Shown: positions 8,380 to 26,265 of the stretch, piece after piece
How positions within the stretch are numbered: the stretch's first letter is position 1
Layout of the letters: each line of letters opens with the position of its first letter
Source of the DNA: an uncultured Dehalococcoidaceae bacterium
Lineage (GTDB): Bacteria; Chloroflexota; Dehalococcoidia; Dehalococcoidales; RBG-16-60-22
NCBI GenBank assembly: GCA_964404475.1
Contig: CAYOKF010000002.1
Span: forward strand, 1 to 26,265
Direction: 5' to 3'
Length of the DNA stretch: 26,265 bases
The notes under the pieces: generated by a model
Databases searched by the model: none
What the model was told of the DNA's origin: nothing
Seen by the model: only the letters and a program-made list of their open reading frames with translations
Program-made: the position numbers and the translations under genes

Positions 8380-9478
8380 ATGCAGGAATTAAGAGATAAA
8401 TTAGCCGATTTGCAGTCCAGAGTAGCCGCAGCAATGGAGCATCTTTGACATAGATTCCTGTGAAAAGGAGCTCTCCCGTCTGGAAAAACAATCCGCCCAG
8501 CCCGAATTTTGGTCGGATCAGAATCATGCGCAGGATATCATGCGGCAGCTGGTAGAGACTGCTAAAATGGTCCAGGTCTGGCGGGAACTGGAAAAAAGAA
8601 TTACTGACATCGCCGAGTTGATACCCCTTTCGGAAAGTGACGATTCACTGCAAACAGAGCTGCAGACAGAGCTGGGTGAAGTAACTTCCCGTCTTGACGA
8701 ACTGGAATTCCGGATGTCTTTAGGCGGTGAGTATGATTCACGGAATGCTATTCTGGCGATTCATGCCGGCGCTGGTGGTACTGAATCTCAGGACTGGGCG
8801 GACATGTTGATGCGGATGTACCTGCGCTGGGCGGAGCGCCGTAACTACCGGACAGAAGTACTGGATGTTTCCCCGGGTGAGGAGGCTGGAGTAAAAAGCG
8901 TGGTCATTGCCATCAGCGGTGATTATGCTCACGGCTATTTAAAGTCGGAGCACGGAGTTCACCGTCTGGTACGTTTATCTCCTTTTGATTCTGACCATGC
9001 CCGGCACACGTCATTCGCTTTGGTGGAGGTTTTGCCTGAAGCTGAGGCTGATATTGACGTAAAGATAGAGCCTGAGGATTTGCAGGTTGATACGTTTCGG
9101 TCCAGTGGCCCGGGCGGACAGCATATGCAGAAGACAAGCAGCGCCGTAAGGCTGACTCACCTGCCCTCCGGGCTGGTAGTTACCTGCCAGAGTGAGCGTT
9201 CGCAATTTCAGAATAAGGAAATTGCTATGAAGATACTTCAATCGCGGCTATTAGATCTGGAGTTGACCAGGAGGGATGAGGAAAGAGCCAGGCTCAAGGG
9301 GGAAAGAATAGCTGCGGGGTGGGGTAATCAGATCAGGAGCTACGTGCTCCATCCCTATAAACTGGTCAAAGACCATCGTACTGATTATCAGACGAGTGAC
9401 ACCGATGCCGTGCTGGATGGTGACCTGGATGATTTTATCAATTCTTATCTAAGGTCGGTCATGGGGCAGGAGACATGA
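8380..9478 (+). CDS. prfB: Peptide chain release factor 2, about 365 aa, made by programmed +1 frameshift (join 8380..8445, 8447..9478)
   Basis: ATG 8380 (SD GGAGG 8364-8368) opens MQELRDKLADLQSRVAAAMEHL and ends in CTT-TGA-C at 8443-8449. The +1 frame continues DIDSCEKELSRLEKQSAQPEFWSDQ into the track ORF. The SPF recognition loop and the GGQ motif are both present. Confidence 0.96.
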
Positions 9479-14538: not shown

Positions 14539-14709
14539 TTTCAGGAAGCAGCAGCAAAGATGTTTGATTGTATTGTTCTATTAAAAGCAACCAAGTTAGA
14601 AATAGAGCTAAAAGAAATCATTAATTAAAATATGGCGAGTATCCCCTTACGTCACGTATACAAAGGTGGTATAGTGTATAAAACTATATGCCACAAAGGG
14701 GAGTTAACC

Positions 14710-15198
14710 ATGCCTTCATATGGTGTGCTTTATATTGATGGTAGGGGTTTAGAAATAAAACTGAAGCCAAGAGGATTTTTTAGGAATGTATTTAAAAAGT
14801 GGGAACCTTACTTAACTGGAGACGTGCTAGATGTAAAATTAGTAGTTAAATCATCGAGCAATACAGCAATGAACTATAGCTATTCTTGGCAATTACAAGA
14901 TTTACTACCAGAAAAAAATTTCAGAGTAGTAACGCAAGGTTGTGGTTCATTTATGACCACGCCCAAAGGAACAACAGAAGTTAAATTAAGAACACATTTG
15001 ATACAATATGAAGCTGAATACCATTTGATAGCAACAGTGAAATCAGATGGGAACGAAGAAGGGATGAAAACACTTCTCAATTTTTACGCTATGGCTAGAG
15101 ACGTTTATCATACTAAGTGGCTTACGGGTTTAATGTCAGGTTTTGTTGGTGCAATCATAGGGCTTGCAGTCGGATTATTGATAAATTGGGTAAATTGA
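14710..15198 (+). CDS. Hypothetical protein with a C-terminal TM anchor and a beta-rich N-terminal part
   Basis: The SD AAAGGGGAG precedes ATG 14710 (MPSYGVLYIDGRG...), so I prefer this start to the track's 14632. It ends in a hydrophobic helix (GLMSGFVGAIIGLAVGLLINWVN). Confidence 0.7.
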   Translation: MPSYGVLYIDGRGLEIKLKPRGFFRNVFKKWEPYLTGDVLDVKLVVKSSSNTAMNYSYSWQLQDLLPEKNFRVVTQGCGSFMTTPKGTTEVKLRTHLIQYEAEYHLIATVKSDGNEEGMKTLLNFYAMARDVYHTKWLTGLMSGFVGAIIGLAVGLLINWVN

Positions 15199-15457: not shown

Positions 15458-15547
15458 TGGCGGAGGGGGTGGGATTCGAACCCACGGTCAGCTTGCGCCG
15501 ACAGCGGTTTTCAAGACCGCCTCCTTAGACCACTCGGACACCCCTCC
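15458..15547 (-). tRNA. tRNA-Ser (anticodon UGA), class II with long variable arm, CCA encoded
   Basis: Minus strand GGAGGGGTGTCCGAGTGGTCTAAGGAGGCGGTCT-TGA-AAACCGCTGTCGGCGCAAGCTGACCGTGGGTTCGAATCCCACCCCCTCCGCCA, 90 nt. Confidence 0.97.
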
Positions 15548-15551
15548 TGGC

Positions 15552-16799
15552 TTATTTTATCACCTTTTCGCCCACCATCCCCTGTAACACCTCGGGAACT
15601 ACTATGCTGCCGTCAGCCTGCTGGTAGTTCTCCATGACAGCGATGAGCACACGGGGCAGAGCCAGCCCGGAACCATTGAGGGTGTGGACAAACCGGGGCC
15701 TGGCGTCAGGGGCGGGGCGGTAGCGGATATTGGCGCGCCGCGCCTGAAAATCACCGCAGTTGGAGCAGGAGCTTACCTCCAGCCACTCCTCGCAACCGGG
15801 AGCCCAGACCTCAATGTCATACGACTTGGTGGAGGCGAAGCCGAGGTCTCCAGTGCAGAGCTGGATAATCCTGTAGGGCAGTTCCAGCCTGCGGCAGACC
15901 TCTTCGGCGGCACTGACCATTTTCTCCAGCTCATCATTGGAGTTTTCCGGCTCGGTGAATTTATAGAGCTCAACCTTGTCAAACTGGTGACCCCGCTTGA
16001 TACCGCGGGTATCCTTCCCCGCTGACATCTTCTCACGTCGGAAGCAGGCGGTATAGGCGGCGTAATACAGGGGCAGTGTTCCCGGGGGAAGTAATTCATC
16101 ACGGTGGAGGTTGGTCACCGGCACCTCGGCTGTGGGCACGAACCAGAGGTCATCTTCTTCGTCATGGTAAAGATTATCGACGAACTTGGGCAGATTGCTG
16201 GAACCCACCATGCACTCCCGTTTTACCATGAATGGCGGATATATTTCTTGATAGCCGTGCTCTCTGGTGTGGAGGTCAAGCATAAACCAGATGAGGGCTC
16301 GCTGCAAACGAGCGCCGTTACTTTTGAGTACGTAAAACCGGCTGCCCGACAGCTTGACACCCCTGTCAAAATCAATAATGCCCAGCGACTCACCCAGTTG
16401 CCAGTGCGGGGCCGGTGCAAAGGCGAATTCTTTCGGCTCTCCCCAGTGGCGGATTACCACGTTGTCGCTTTCGTCTTTACCTACCGGTACGGAGGGTTGG
16501 GGTAGATTGGGCACCTGAAGGAGTAACTCTTCAAGCTTTTCATCCAGTTCTCTGACCTCCTCTTCCATCTCCCTTATGCTGTCACGCAGTTTGCGCCCCT
16601 CACTGGCGGCTGACTCGCCGGTTTGCCTGTCCCGCGAAGCCTCTTTGCGCGCATGCCTGAGTTCTTCCAGTTCCTGTATCTTCTGGCGGCGCTCAGAGTC
16701 AAGCTGTAATATCTCCTCAATCGTGGTAGTGTCCTGGCGCTTTTGCAGCGCCTCACGTACTGCTTCCGGGTTCTCGCGTATAAATTTAAGGTCAAGCAT
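15552..16799 (-). CDS. serS: Seryl-tRNA synthetase
   Basis: Motifs MLDLKFIREN, a coiled-coil arm, PTAEVP, FRREKMSAG...RGHQFDKVE, EVSSCSNCGDFQARR and TLNGSGLA. Confidence 0.98.
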   Translation of the reverse strand: MLDLKFIRENPEAVREALQKRQDTTTIEEILQLDSERRQKIQELEELRHARKEASRDRQTGESAASEGRKLRDSIREMEEEVRELDEKLEELLLQVPNLPQPSVPVGKDESDNVVIRHWGEPKEFAFAPAPHWQLGESLGIIDFDRGVKLSGSRFYVLKSNGARLQRALIWFMLDLHTREHGYQEIYPPFMVKRECMVGSSNLPKFVDNLYHDEEDDLWFVPTAEVPVTNLHRDELLPPGTLPLYYAAYTACFRREKMSAGKDTRGIKRGHQFDKVELYKFTEPENSNDELEKMVSAAEEVCRRLELPYRIIQLCTGDLGFASTKSYDIEVWAPGCEEWLEVSSCSNCGDFQARRANIRYRPAPDARPRFVHTLNGSGLALPRVLIAVMENYQQADGSIVVPEVLQGMVGEKVIK

Positions 16800-22665: not shown

Positions 22666-23841
22666 TTACAGTAATGAGGGTATATCTTTAGCTGCGTCTT
22701 CGATTGCTCTCAGCTTAACTTCGGTTTCTTCCTGCCTCTGTCTGAAACGGGGAATAAGACCGCTTGACTGGAGATAATAGTCCCTCACCTTTTCCACATC
22801 GCTCAGCTCAGAAAGAAGTACCGTGACGTCAAGTATGCCTTTTTCTCTGGGGTAATCGCCATTCCTGATGATAGCCTCCGGCGCCAGGTCCCGCATATAG
22901 TCGCCCAGTTCCTTAACCATGTCCATATTCATTTCCTTGCTTGGACCGGAGACAAGGTAAAGGGCTCTCCTTGAATCTACCGGGCTACACTTGAGTGAGA
23001 GTTCACTGATGGCTTCATCCATGGCCTGAATGCCTTTCTGAATTTCCTGGCTCTTCTTGCGGAAGTCACTTCCCCAGTCTCGGGGAAATCTGATTAACGG
23101 AACTGATGCTTTACCATAACCAATCACCGTCCAGCCGACCAGTGTCTGGATAATATCACCGGCATCAAGGAGCTTGGCACCGATATATTTGGACTTTTTC
23201 TCTTCACCGGCACAGAGCACGTTATAGAATGGTTCAACCATCATTGCGTTTATTTTAGTTAAATTGTTGGCCAGAGATGAATCCTTTCTGACATATCTCT
23301 GGTTATCAACCAGAAAAACAGCATCTGCAACACTGTAGGCAGATTTAAGGCAGGTGGCGACGTTATAGACTGTCCTTTCCTCGGTGGTTTCTTCATGTTC
23401 AAAGGGGAGGACAATAAGATTGTAGACTGGTTTATCAACATAACGTTCTTTTATGGTTTGTGTTATTACGCCAATGGAACCAGAGCCGGTACCGCCCGCC
23501 GAAGAAGCAATGAGCAGGAAGGCGTCTGTTTCGAAGAAACGCTTGGTAGTTCTTATGGCATCAATTACCTTATCCGCATCATCTTTGGCAATCTCTGCTC
23601 CCAACTCGTTGATCTTCCCCACACCATGCCCACCGGTTTTACGGCCACCAATCAGGATCCGGTTACGATAGCCTTTTTTGATACTGGTCAGTCCACTGAG
23701 ATCAGCAGCATCACTATTAACCGCAAAGGTACCGGTGATTATATCGATCCCGCGCCGGCTATGGGCTCTCGCGTTCATACGGGAAAACTCGTCAGCAATC
23801 CTGCCGCCACATTGCCCTAAACCTACAACCACTAATTTCAT
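22666..23841 (-). CDS. Tubulin/FtsZ superfamily GTPase, CetZ-like rather than canonical FtsZ
   Basis: T1 loop GLGQCGGRIA, GHGVG, signature SSAGGTGSG, PVYNLIVLP, VDN, T7-equivalent LDAGDIIQTL and GDYP. SD GAGGTG. Confidence 0.88.
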   Translation of the reverse strand: MKLVVVGLGQCGGRIADEFSRMNARAHSRRGIDIITGTFAVNSDAADLSGLTSIKKGYRNRILIGGRKTGGHGVGKINELGAEIAKDDADKVIDAIRTTKRFFETDAFLLIASSAGGTGSGSIGVITQTIKERYVDKPVYNLIVLPFEHEETTEERTVYNVATCLKSAYSVADAVFLVDNQRYVRKDSSLANNLTKINAMMVEPFYNVLCAGEEKKSKYIGAKLLDAGDIIQTLVGWTVIGYGKASVPLIRFPRDWGSDFRKKSQEIQKGIQAMDEAISELSLKCSPVDSRRALYLVSGPSKEMNMDMVKELGDYMRDLAPEAIIRNGDYPREKGILDVTVLLSELSDVEKVRDYYLQSSGLIPRFRQRQEETEVKLRAIEDAAKDIPSLL

Positions 23842-23868
23842 TTTTTCACCTCAGAAGTATTGAGTTAG

Positions 23869-24011
23869 GCTATTTTTACCACAGTTACATGAAAATGTCA
23901 ATTCTTATGTTGGGAATAATATAGTACAATAGTGCTACAAAAAAATATATTAGTAGATACCTATGGTTATTGAAAATCTGGGTGTCCTATAATAGAATGA
24001 GTAAAAATAGC
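23869..24011. promoter_or_regulatory. Divergent promoter region with an inverted 11-bp GTAAAAATAGC box
   Basis: Minus strand: TTGACA (23901-23896), N17, TAAAAA with an upstream TG. Plus strand: TTGAAA (23970-23975), N17, TAGAAT (23993-23998). The box lies at 23869-23879 (-) and 24001-24011 (+). Confidence 0.5.
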
Positions 24012-24027
24012 AAGGGTGGTTTGGTAA

Positions 24028-26265
24028 TTGTCTGCTGAATTACGCGAGGATGTGGAAGGTAATATCGGGGCTTTTGAGAAAGCCGTAGCCAGGGCCGAAG
24101 TGCTAAGCAAAGCTGCACGCGAGGCGGCTGAGGTTTCAACGAAGGCTGCTCAAGATGCAATAAGGCGGGCGGAGAAAATAAGCCGTGAGTCTAAAGAGGC
24201 AGCCGAGGCGTCAGCACGGGCTGCGCAGGAAACGATAGACAGGGCTGAGAAAATAGCCAGGGAGGCTCAGGAATCCGCCTTGGCCGCTATAAAAACTGCG
24301 CAAGAAGCGGTAAGCCGTGCCGAGGAGGCGGCCAAAGCTCCAAAAGATACAGCCAAAGCAACGACCGCAGCCTTTCAGGAAGCAATAAAACGTGCTGAAG
24401 AAATAAGCAAGGAAGCTATGGAAGCGGCTGAGATTTCTCTGCGAACTTCTCAAGAAGGATTAGCCAATGTTGAGGAGATAAGCCAGGGAGCTAAAGAGGC
24501 GGCGGAGACAGCTAGAAAGGCTTCACAGGACGCGGTAAGAAGGGCCGATGAAGCGGGCAAGGCAGCCAAGGAAGCTTCCGAGGTATCGGTACGGGCCTCA
24601 CGGGAAGCGACCAACCGTGCTGAAAAGGCTAGCCGGGAAGCTAAAGTATCCAGTGATGAAGCCACTAAAGCTGCCCAGGAAGCAGCTAGCCGGGCGGAAA
24701 GAACAAGTAAAACGGTCAGGGAGTCAGCGGAGGCAGCGGCAAGGGCTGTCCAGGAATCAAGTAACCGCGCTGAAGCAACGAGCAAACTGGCTAGAGAAGT
24801 TGCTGACGCTTCGTTGAAGGCTTCTCAGGGTATAATCGCGCGTACGGAGCAGATAAGTAAAGAGTCAAAAGAAGCTGCCGAGACGTCAAGAAGAGAAAAC
24901 CGGGAGGCATTAAGCAAGATTGCAGAAGTAGAGAGAGAGACCAGGGAATCAACCGAATCATTGCTTAGGATGTCACAGGAATCTGTAGAGACAGCGAAGG
25001 GAGTTTCCCAAGAGGCAATAAAACGGGCTGAAGAGGTTGGCCAGGAAGCCAGAGAGTCAGCGGAAACATCCGCCAGGCTTTTCCAGGAGGAACTCGCCAG
25101 AATAGAAGAAATTAACCGGGAGACCAGGGAAGCAATCGAGGCATCATTAAAGGAATCTCAGGAAGCATCCGAAAAGTCAATTGAAGCCTCACGTGAAGCG
25201 ATAGAGAAATCAGCTGAGGCCTCACGTGAAGCGATGGAGAAATCAGCTGAGGCCTCACGTGAAGCGATGGAGAAATCAGCTGAGGCCTCACGTGAAGCGA
25301 TAGAGAAATCAGCTGAGGCCTCACGTGAAGCAACTGAAGAGACAGCTAGAACCTCGCGGGAGGCTAGCGAAGAAGCAGTTAAAGCCTCTCAGGAAGCAAT
25401 AGCACGGGCTGAAGAGATCGGTAGAGAGGCCAGGGAAATGACAGAAGCATCTACCAAGGAATTCCGGGAAGCAATCACCAGAGCCGAGGAGATAAATCGT
25501 GAGGTCAGGGAAAATACCGGCACGTTAGCTGAAACGGTAAGGGAGGCGATTGAATCAGTAGCCAGGGAATCTCAGGAAGCAATCGCGAATATGGAGGAAA
25601 TGAGTAAATCTGCCAGGGACAAAGCTGAAGAATCGGTGGGCGTGGTTAAGGAGGCGACTGAGGCAGCAGCCAGTGCTGCCCGGGAGGCGGCGGAGGAGGC
25701 GAACAGGGAATTCCAGGAGGCAATAAAGCGGACTGAAGAGATTAGCAATGAAGCGAGGCAGATGGCTGAGTCAGCTACCAGAGAAGCTGAAGAGATGATA
25801 GCTTCATTAAAGTTAGCCGCTGAGGAATCGGCTGATTCGACAATAAAAGCGACCAGAGAAGCGGCTGAAGCGGCGACAAAAGTCGCTCAGGAAGCGGCGA
25901 GGATGTCAATCAAAGCCTTTGAGGAAACGATAAGCCGGGCGGAGGCGACGGGTAAAATAGCGCGAGAGGTAGCCGAAACGTCATTCAAGTCTTTTGAAGA
26001 TATGATTAAGAAGGCTGTCGTGAAGGGTGAAGCCCCCGTAAAAGGTGGTGGCGAGCCGCCGGAGGAATTGCCTGAAAAAGAGGTGGACAGAGAAGTTAAA
26101 ATTACCAAAAAGGCTGATAAACCTTCCGAAGCATCGATTAGAGTGTTTAAGGATGCGATAAAGCGTACCGGCAAGGCTGAGCCGAAGGAAAATCAGCCAC
26201 TGGCGGGAGCAAAGGGGGAAATTGATGCCCGTTTGGAATTCTTAGCCAAAATGTATGAGGAAAAG
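24028..26265 (+). CDS. Giant Ala/Glu/Arg/Ser-rich coiled-coil repeat protein, at least 746 aa, 3'-truncated and absent from the ORF track
   Basis: I translated frame +1 by hand. TTG at 24028 follows an in-frame TAA, and there is no stop up to 26265 (MSAELREDVEGNIGAFEKAVARAEVL...EIDARLEFLAKMYEEK). It is built of 25-aa and 11-aa modules, with no signal peptide or TM segment. Confidence 0.9.
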   Translation, partial: MSAELREDVEGNIGAFEKAVARAEVLSKAAREAAEVSTKAAQDAIRRAEKISRESKEAAEASARAAQETIDRAEKIAREAQESALAAIKTAQEAVSRAEEAAKAPKDTAKATTAAFQEAIKRAEEISKEAMEAAEISLRTSQEGLANVEEISQGAKEAAETARKASQDAVRRADEAGKAAKEASEVSVRASREATNRAEKASREAKVSSDEATKAAQEAASRAERTSKTVRESAEAAARAVQESSNRAEATSKLAREVADASLKASQGIIARTEQISKESKEAAETSRRENREALSKIAEVERETRESTESLLRMSQESVETAKGVSQEAIKRAEEVGQEARESAETSARLFQEELARIEEINRETREAIEASLKESQEASEKSIEASREAIEKSAEASREAMEKSAEASREAMEKSAEASREAIEKSAEASREATEETARTSREASEEAVKASQEAIARAEEIGREAREMTEASTKEFREAITRAEEINREVRENTGTLAETVREAIESVARESQEAIANMEEMSKSARDKAEESVGVVKEATEAAASAAREAAEEANREFQEAIKRTEEISNEARQMAESATREAEEMIASLKLAAEESADSTIKATREAAEAATKVAQEAARMSIKAFEETISRAEATGKIAREVAETSFKSFEDMIKKAVVKGEAPVKGGGEPPEELPEKEVDREVKITKKADKPSEASIRVFKDAIKRTGKAEPKENQPLAGAKGEIDARLEFLAKMYEEK
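24076..25995 (+). repeat. Degenerate modular repeat array: 19 x 75-bp (25-aa) and 15 x 33-bp (11-aa) units
   Basis: The motif (Q/R)EAI.RAEEI recurs every 75 nt at 24076, 24151, ... 24901, then at 25009, 25084, 25390, 25465, 25573, 25714 and 25921. The gaps between these are exact multiples of 33 nt. Confidence 0.85.
25183..25331 (+). repeat. Near-perfect 33-bp tandem repeat, about 4.5 copies (EASREA[I/M]EKSA)
   Basis: Unit GAGGCCTCACGTGAAGCGAT[A/G]GAGAAATCAGCT at 25183, 25216, 25249, 25282 and a partial copy at 25315. Confidence 0.95.

Follow-up and report, generated by a model that had tools for sequence, protein, structure and literature searches.

A long helical repeat protein encoded between two CetZ-like tubulin genes in Dehalococcoidales: a putative structural partner of a bacterial cytoskeletal system

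What might a bacterium do with a protein that is largely one repetitive helix, and what does it mean that its gene lies beside that of a tubulin-like GTPase? We investigated this question at the end of contig CAYOKF010000002.1 (assembly GCA_964404475.1) from an uncultured Dehalococcoidaceae bacterium (Chloroflexota; Dehalococcoidia; Dehalococcoidales; RBG-16-60-22); the whole stretch analyzed, 26,265 nucleotides, is called the window below. Its final part is occupied by an open reading frame (ORF), hereafter the rod gene, which an initial annotation made from the sequence alone had described as an open-ended frame for a continuous coiled coil. We found that this ORF is a real, conserved protein gene of Dehalococcoidales. 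Judging from its synteny, we think the product is best read as a structural element that works with a bacterial CetZ-like filament system, whether as scaffold, spacer, tether or cross-linker.

The rod gene and its conserved neighborhood

The frame beginning at 24028 contains 746 codons without a stop up to the end of the window, which is also the end of the contig, and is directly preceded by a TAA stop at 24025–24027. Its start codon is TTG, with a Shine-Dalgarno-like GGGTGG motif before it, and orthologues carry ATG at the homologous position (MSAEIKEDVDNNIGAFEKAV...). The end of the gene was sought by scanning metagenome contigs for exact matches to the last 48 nt of the window. One contig, Ga0180432_10001188 (L085), overlaps the window at 25256–26265 (1010 nt, 0 mismatches) and carries on for 17 further codons before a stop, giving the C terminus ...MYEEKQNKTEDNESEESLGEEE. 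The complete protein has 763 residues and a net charge of −44, complete orthologues terminate in the same way, and no catalytic domain was found by Pfam in the frame finished on L085. The initial annotation had thus recognized a true gene, as the stop-free frame, the upstream TAA, the Shine-Dalgarno-like motif and the orthologues all indicate; its figure of at least 746 residues, open to the contig end, stands as a lower bound, and the extension that it called for closes the frame at 763. Its view that gene-calling pipelines miss such an ORF was not established, as the Joint Genome Institute gene call on a sister contig includes the truncated gene.

The protein is strongly acidic, with Ala (162), Glu (151), Ser (72), Arg (68) and Lys (61) as its counted major residues. 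Cys, Trp and His are absent, and Pro105 is the sole one of eight Pro residues within the repeat span, the same composition as that first reported. The rod protein is cytoplasmic and has neither a signal peptide nor a membrane segment.

The gene transcribed divergently from the rod gene, tubB, encodes a 391-aa protein matching Pfam Tubulin (7.9e-30, 105 bits) and CetZ_C (8.6e-16, 58.3 bits; cut-off 21.6), both above the gathering thresholds, whereas its score against TIGR ftsZ was 50.8 bits with a cut-off of 295. The top PDB sequence matches were Haloferax CetZ1 (4b46, 3.5e-39), CetZ2 (4b45) and Methanosaeta CetZ (3zid). With a GTPase domain, a CetZ-type C-terminal domain and a sequence nearer to CetZ than to FtsZ, tubB is best classed as CetZ-like and not as a division FtsZ. 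Thousands of close relatives in Chloroflexota/Dehalococcoidales are labeled “tubulin/FtsZ family protein”. Across the rod gene lies the paralogue tubA (L085 3929–5104), which also encodes 391 aa and is 69% identical to tubB. The C-terminal peptide KDIPSLL is near-invariant among 145 tubulin copies and occurs in both paralogues; FtsZ binds its partners through a conserved C-terminal peptide, which KDIPSLL appears to resemble. For the CetZ-like protein, AlphaFold2 worked from a shallow alignment in which no row fell below 80% identity, and its model was unusable, with a predicted local distance difference test score (pLDDT) of 46. Dehalococcoides mccartyi encodes FtsZ and FtsA as a pair of their own (DET0343/0342) and has additional “FtsZ” genes (PMC5102406).

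We then surveyed the distribution of this arrangement. A tubulin scan of one genome per GTDB species gave at least 524 matches, the best 80 of which were examined and all came from Dehalococcoidales/-ia bins; together with two metagenome contigs, these make 82 loci from distinct genomes, 77 of them informative. A complete four-gene cassette (tubA, a small coiled-coil gene, the rod gene and tubB) was present at 62 loci, and three loci (L080, L082 and L083) had a three-gene form without the small gene. At eight further loci, the rod gene adjoined tubB on a contig that ended in the rod gene. A rod orthologue therefore adjoins a 391-aa CetZ-like gene in 73 of the 77 informative Dehalococcoidales loci; the other four have a single tubulin gene and no rod gene, with the upstream region covered, and five loci were uninformative. 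On long contigs with 93% and 87% identical tubulins, the order is GAPDH, tubA, small coiled-coil gene, rod gene, tubB and DnaX-YbaB-RecR-RecO, with the small and rod genes on the opposite strand. The cassette of the window strain continues on L085 with a 186-aa small protein, the 391-aa tubA and then GAPDH. The divergence of the rod gene and tubB is conserved in all cassettes, and the AT-rich region between them holds promoter-like hexamers that are consensus matches only: TTGAAA-17-TAGAAT at 23970–23998 (+) and TTGACA-18-AAAAAT at 23901–23872 (−).

Among the single-tubulin loci, L015 and L079 run from GAPDH through one tubulin gene to DnaX and lack the rod and small genes; in L061 and L072, GAPDH directly precedes the single tubulin gene, and neither the second paralogue nor the rod and small genes occur. 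This indicates joint presence or absence of the second tubulin, the rod gene and the small gene. The pattern in the single-tubulin lineages could also serve to date the origin of the cassette.

The conserved small partner (approximately 160–190 aa; L085 5262–5822, − strand; L002 6879–7442, − strand) has an acidic, probably disordered N-terminal part and a helical C-terminal part with AYKAYMEAERQVARAYRENE and AWQIYSKM, and it matched no Pfam family above threshold. In one related genome (L004), a Shedu-type SduA_C gene (anti-phage defence; 14036–15157, + strand) lies between recR and recO, where the window has none.

Repeat architecture, conserved ends and predicted structure

Residues 17–656 of the rod parse into 25- and 11-residue units in the order 12×25, 1×11, 2×25, 7×11, 2×25, 1×11, 1×25, 2×11, 1×25, 4×11 and 1×25, and almost all units open with Q/R-E-A-[IVL]. 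Compared with 200 shuffles, self-identity stood out at lags of 25 (z = 15) and 11 (z = 14), and the Fourier spectrum of hydrophobicity peaked at 3.57–3.62 residues with a power of 369 against a shuffle maximum of 110; the hydrophobic period is approximately 3.58 residues. Because the lag and Fourier signals are far above those of the shuffles, the periodicity is not due to chance. Within the unit, positions 3, 4, 7, 10, 11, 14, 17, 18, 21 and 25 are hardly ever charged, and positions 20, 22 and 24 rarely are. Large hydrophobic residues occur chiefly at positions 4 and 10, the other apolar positions being Ala/Ser, and roughly half of the repeat positions are never charged, which gives a broad Ala/Ser/Ile face. 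The core spacing is 3-4-3-4-3-4-4, that is, heptads with one stutter per 25 residues. The exact parse over 640 residues in the initial annotation was thereby reproduced, its reading of 25 as 7+7+11 agrees with the core spacing, and the Fourier peak falls within the 3.57–3.67 that it anticipated.

At the DNA level, the sole (recent) repeat found by Tandem Repeats Finder (TRF) is a 33-bp array inside the gene; elsewhere, the repetition exists at the protein level only. L085 ends within this array, at window position 25256, and the rod gene likewise contains the ends of a third contig (L001) and of eight genome-bin contigs; contigs ending inside the gene or an orthologue include L001, L024, L030, L040, L045, L049, L055 and L067, with ends at or close to the 33-bp repeats. 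Because these repeats evidently break metagenome assemblies, databases hold the rod family mostly as unnamed fragments.

The family comparison took in complete or near-complete orthologues (66 for periodicity, 65 for lengths and motifs and 64 for head columns). In all 66, self-similarity was highest at a lag of 25 (or 50), and hydrophobicity had a period of 3.57–3.62. Lengths ranged from 517 to 911 aa (median: 727). A dynamic-programming 25/11 parse covered 0.99 of the real and 0.94 of the shuffled sequences and is thus non-discriminating, so that its unit numbers (approximately 19–20 25-mers in most species and 6–24 11-mers) are rough counts only. The head follows the consensus MSPELxEDVEGNIxDFEKAVARAEALSRAAREAA with column conservation of 80–99%. 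Spacing is fixed over the N-terminal 130 residues or so: counted from the head anchor, 62 of 65 orthologues have Pro at exactly +89 (Pro105 here) and 58 of 65 have Gly at +128 (residue 144 here). After the +89 Pro, the orthologues have no other Pro before a Pro-rich linker of variable length. At the other end, all 65 orthologues carry the motif K[IM]EARLE[SF]LA[RK]MYExK, with the near-invariant helix core K-I-E-A-R-L-E-x-L-A-x-M-Y, and a tail of 12–24 aa (median net charge: −4) follows it. In the window strain, EIDARLEFLAKMYEEK ends in MYEEK and is followed by the tail QNKTEDNESEESLGEEE and the stop. The same C-terminal motif was found in P0132, a shorter and more divergent relative from a Dehalococcoides sp. 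bin.

The window rod shows all the traits of the family: the cassette position, the head motif NIxxFEKAVARAE with Pro105 and Gly144, the 25-residue lag and period, and the C-terminal helix with its acidic tail. The short head, Pro/Gly linker and amphipathic end originally described as flanking the rod are all present. Identity across these genomes is approximately 80% for tubB and 42% for the rod. In the alignments, the strongest constraint falls on the two ends of the rod, and the length of the middle varies between species, a pattern that would be expected of a spacer with functional termini. Of the filament, scaffold or molecular ruler first suggested, a structural role fits the position between CetZ-like tubulin genes; a ruler is doubtful because orthologue length varies so widely.

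An AlphaFold2 single-sequence monomer model of the rod (pLDDT 62; predicted template modeling score, pTM, 0.35) has helices at residues 3–101, 106–204, 209–324, 331–533, 539–665, 701–714 and 727–745, with disorder at 666–700 and breaks in the rod at 102–105, 205–208, 325–330 and 534–538; the first break coincides with Pro105. In a simple two-stranded coiled coil, the a/d seam is narrower than this apolar stripe, and several modes of assembly are therefore open to the rod: it could form a higher-order oligomer, associate laterally, fold back into a bundle or bind a surface as a helix. Hence, what survives of the continuous 640-residue coiled coil is an amphipathic, almost Pro-free helical periodicity; a coiled coil is a prediction from it, and the broad face and the four low-confidence model breaks count against continuity. 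Similarly, approximately 95 nm is correct arithmetic for the rod if fully extended, an extension that is putative in view of the same face and breaks.

Sequence searches placed the rod in no known family. In Pfam, NCBIfam and PHROGs, no family scored above threshold, the 116-aa tail searched alone gave no match, and a PDB sequence search with the rod returned designed helical bundles only. A phmmer search against 1.84 billion representatives gave 86 weak matches, mostly short head or tail fragments and concentrated on rod residues 1–100; it yielded no named family and no route to D. mccartyi locus tags. When the whole ORF was searched against a 5.8-billion-protein set, there were five matches, all histidine kinases from sediment metagenomes (P0001–P0005; E = 2e-9 to 2.5e-6; 30–40% identity over 18–52% of the query). 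These kinases, the sole significant full-length relatives, have the layout REC-PAS-coiled coil-HisKA-HATPase, and their PAS-to-HisKA linker of 360–397 aa is built from the same 25-residue unit, with an SQEAIxxAEE core, a top lag of 25 and a period of 3.585–3.59. Sensor kinases normally have a parallel two-helix (dimeric) coiled coil at this linker position, and the use of the unit there lends indirect support to the idea that the rod unit can form a parallel coiled coil. The two contexts differ. The kinase repeat connects sensor to catalytic domains, and its genomic neighborhood is a pilus/secretion-like cluster; the rod, by contrast, consists of the repeat throughout and has a separate head and tail, and its gene sits in a tubulin cassette. 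As observations on the kinases themselves, the linker would be a signaling helix of approximately 50 nm if extended, and the gene for P0003 (L086 5263–7815) lies within a type IV pilus/type II secretion-like cluster.

Candidate roles of the rod

With moderate confidence, we read the rod as the long subunit of a Dehalococcoidales-specific four-gene cytoskeletal module and as a partner of CetZ-like filaments. The module would comprise two paralogous CetZ-like GTPases, a small coiled-coil protein of approximately 170 aa and a rod of approximately 730 aa. Rod helices may pack against one another by way of the Ala/Ser/Ile face and so form an elongated oligomer; the conserved ends might dock onto CetZ-like filaments (e.g., at the invariant KDIPSLL peptide) and/or onto the small coiled-coil partner, and the variable helical middle would supply length. 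The rod could then bundle, space or tether filaments that shape the peptidoglycan-less, disc-like cells. The architecture, full length, conservation and synteny of the rod are shown here; throughout this scheme, its oligomerization, binding partners and role in cell shape are presumed. Dehalococcoidales have lost peptidoglycan, and their cells take the form of irregular discs or flattened cocci (PMC10284905), a setting in which a cytoskeletal role is plausible; in the absence of a wall, the rod most likely belongs to an undescribed internal skeleton. When D. mccartyi BTF08 grows in pure culture, its cells are discs with plenty of a tubulin/GTPase (btf_0551) and of a hypothetical protein encoded close by (btf_0548); in co-culture, where the cells are barrels, both are reduced or escape detection (PMC8163811). 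Their orthology to the genes discussed here is unverified, and they serve as a lead only. More tentatively, a two-GTPase skeleton of presumably archaeal (CetZ) type, a “MAP-like” (microtubule-associated-protein-like) coiled-coil spacer or cross-linker of approximately 95 nm and a small adaptor might together set the flattened disc shape, which we regard as possible but doubtful.

Several known systems provide a frame for this reading. Like BtubC beside BtubA/B, TubY and TubR beside TubZ, and ZapA, ZapB, EzrA and SepF of FtsZ, the rod is encoded beside tubulin-superfamily genes; the paired paralogues of the cassette are reminiscent of btubA-btubB-btubC, and the FtsZ-like KDIPSLL is the kind of handle that such accessory partners bind. 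However, the rod has no homology to BtubC, TubY, TubR, ZapA, ZapB, EzrA or SepF, it is much longer, and its binding is putative. In sequence, tubB is nearest to the archaeal CetZ proteins (Haloferax CetZ1/CetZ2), with which it shares CetZ_C. CetZ is usually called archaea-specific (PMC9856176), although CetZ-like proteins of Chloroflexota-Dehalococcoidia have been named in passing as a “sparse paraphyletic” group, and coiled-coil genes of unknown function occur near some archaeal tubulin-like genes (Santana-Molina et al. 2023; PMC9871819). In the literature searched, we found no account of this cassette, of the rod family or of a dedicated CetZ rod partner. We know of no binding partner for CetZ-type tubulins.

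The locus thus presents a bacterial CetZ-like pair with two dedicated coiled-coil proteins in wall-less bacteria. If the more tentative reading of a two-GTPase skeleton with its own spacer is right, it would be a bacterial counterpart of the eukaryotic logic of tubulin plus associated proteins and would give the first partner for any CetZ-type filament. The four-gene module would allow the organization of prokaryotic tubulin-like filaments by accessory rods to be studied, and it bears on shape-keeping in wall-less bacteria and on 25-residue (7+7+11) repeats as long helical spacers. More broadly, the rod presumably belongs among the coiled-coil proteins, accessory or structural, of prokaryotic tubulin-superfamily systems, its mechanism being drawn from the conserved context.

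Some observations weigh against this reading. Adjacency is the sole link between the rod and the tubulins; interaction, filament formation and expression of the rod are presumed. The AlphaFold2 monomer, itself of low confidence, cuts the rod into five helices, and the Foldseek PDB matches of the model were non-specific long helical proteins with template modeling scores of 0.1–0.2. The non-polar face is unusually wide and mainly Ala/Ser, which a folded-back bundle or a surface-binding helix would fit as well. Finally, the cassette adjoins dnaX-ybaB-recR, leaving room for a DNA-related role of the tubulins.

The best surviving alternative is an autonomous, intermediate-filament-like protein that polymerizes by itself into a stress-bearing lattice, as in crescentin, FilP or Scy, with the tubulins merely co-regulated or unrelated. 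The rod shares with the crescentin/FilP/Scy/DivIVA class a long helical rod, short end domains, a mix of heptads and hendecads giving a weakly twisted seam, and the lack of a cofactor or enzymatic domain; a long heptad-derived helical rod between non-helical ends is an intermediate-filament-like layout, and its strong periodicity adds to the likeness. Scy and FilP have unusual non-heptad repeats, which the 25 = 7+7+11 and 11-residue periodicity resembles, although their units are of 51 residues, versus 25 in the rod. We nevertheless consider self-sufficient polymerization unlikely: there is no detectable sequence relation to that class, and neither the intermediate-filament family of Pfam nor another filament family was matched; the very acidic protein, with its net charge and Ala/Ser-rich core, has only weak drivers of spontaneous polymerization; and the tight linkage to a tubulin pair, with the joint absence of rod, small gene and second tubulin, points to functional coupling.

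The wide apolar face, covering about half of the helix, and the 11-residue repeats suit a different role, that of a surface-active amphipathic helix (phasin, apolipophorin-III, LEA or perilipin) on a membrane, lipid or polymer, or of a stress protectant. The rod has the Ala/Glu/Lys-rich composition of Phasin_2, ApoLp-III and LEA proteins, and its Pfam scores for Phasin_2 (PF09361, 20.0 bits) and ApoLp-III (PF07464, 19.6 bits) hint in this direction, but both are below the curated gathering cut-offs of 24.9 and 36.3. In D. mccartyi, a hypothetical operon, DET0586-0588, beside the extra “FtsZ” DET0589 tracks solvent toxicity (PMC4340931, PMC5102406), a lead of unverified orthology. Set against this, the rod is 3–7 times longer than such proteins, an Ala/Ser face is weakly lipophilic, the high negative charge disfavors anionic membranes, and the conserved termini, the fixed Pro and the tubulin synteny are left unexplained, which makes a surface-binding role rather improbable in our view.

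In every locus, single-tubulin lineages included, tubB is transcribed towards dnaX-ybaB-recR-recO, and there is precedent in the TubZ and PhuZ systems, which use a tubulin to position DNA. The rod could on this basis be an adaptor of a tubulin-based DNA-partition or replication system, like the accessory proteins of TubZ/PhuZ. This seems to us very improbable, as the rod lacks a DNA-binding domain and is negatively charged overall (−44), the tubulins are CetZ-like and not TubZ-like, and there is no centromere-like array nearby, the only tandem repeat in 24000–26265 being intragenic.

That the ORF only begins a longer protein (a kinase, an SMC/Rad50-like ATPase or a tape measure) or else is a non-coding low-complexity artefact, as the kinase-only matches sharing the 25-mer and a window ending before the stop might suggest, is hardly credible: the stop on L085, 17 codons past the window on an identical overlap and matched by the ends of the orthologues, refutes it as a fragment, and conservation in more than 65 genomes excludes an artefact. 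Each candidate also failed separately. A sensor histidine kinase was rejected since HisKA and HATPase gave no match and the EFLAKMYEEK motif lacks His, an SMC/Rad50-like protein since an ATPase domain lies at neither end of the 763-aa rod, and a phage tape measure since no PHROG matched and the neighbors are chromosomal housekeeping genes. The initial annotation had itself named catalytic domains beyond the window, or membership of a tape-measure or SMC-like family, as grounds for abandoning its description; looked for here, neither was found.

Features and other genes of the window

Table 1. Features of the rod gene and its surroundings, in window coordinates
Feature	Position	Strand	Basis or remark
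CetZ-like tubulin-superfamily GTPase gene tubB, 391 aa, C terminus KDIPSLL	22666..23841	-	Pfam, NCBIfam and PDB sequence matches
AT-rich divergent intergenic region, rod gene/tubB	23842..24027	.	Promoter-like hexamers, consensus matches only
Gene for the long helical rod protein	24028..26265	+	746 of 763 codons inside the window; final 17 codons and stop beyond its end
Acidic head, residues 1–16, running into conserved motif NIGAFEKAVARAE	24028..24075	+	Orthologue alignment
Amphipathic helical rod, 640 residues	24076..25995	+	19×25 + 15×11 residues in register; parse, lag statistics, Fourier, column profile
Pro105 codon, sole proline of the rod	24340..24342	+	Orthologue alignment; AlphaFold break
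33-bp tandem array encoding REA[IM]EKSAEAS 11-mers	25182..25331	+	TRF: 4.5 copies, 97% identical
Pro/Gly/Lys/Glu-rich linker, residues 657–700	25996..26127	+	Sequence; unstructured, pLDDT <50 in model
Short helix EASIRVFKDAIKRT, residues 701–714	26128..26169	+	AlphaFold helix 701–714; semi-conserved [AV]F.EAI.[KR] in orthologues
Conserved C-terminal amphipathic helix EIDARLEFLAKMYEEK, residues 731–746	26218..26265	+	17-residue acidic tail outside the window

By Pfam and NCBIfam, the window is a segment of a bacterial chromosome with housekeeping genes: an AMP-forming acyl-CoA (acetyl-CoA-type) synthetase, the alpha, gamma, beta and epsilon subunits of the F1 ATPase, endonuclease V, RF2, RadC, SerRS, LysRS, RecO, RecR, YbaB and DnaX. 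A 188-aa ORF (14632–15198, + strand) downstream of a family-5 solute-binding protein gene matched neither Pfam nor NCBIfam. A tRNA-Ser gene (anticodon TGA; 15458–15547, − strand) lies directly downstream of the SerRS gene (15552–16799, − strand). The RF2 gene (8381–9478, + strand) carries a programmed +1 frameshift of the classical kind: read from its ATG at 8381, the frame meets the shift site CTT TGA C at 8443–8449, and the PCRF and RF-1 domains carry on in the +1 frame.

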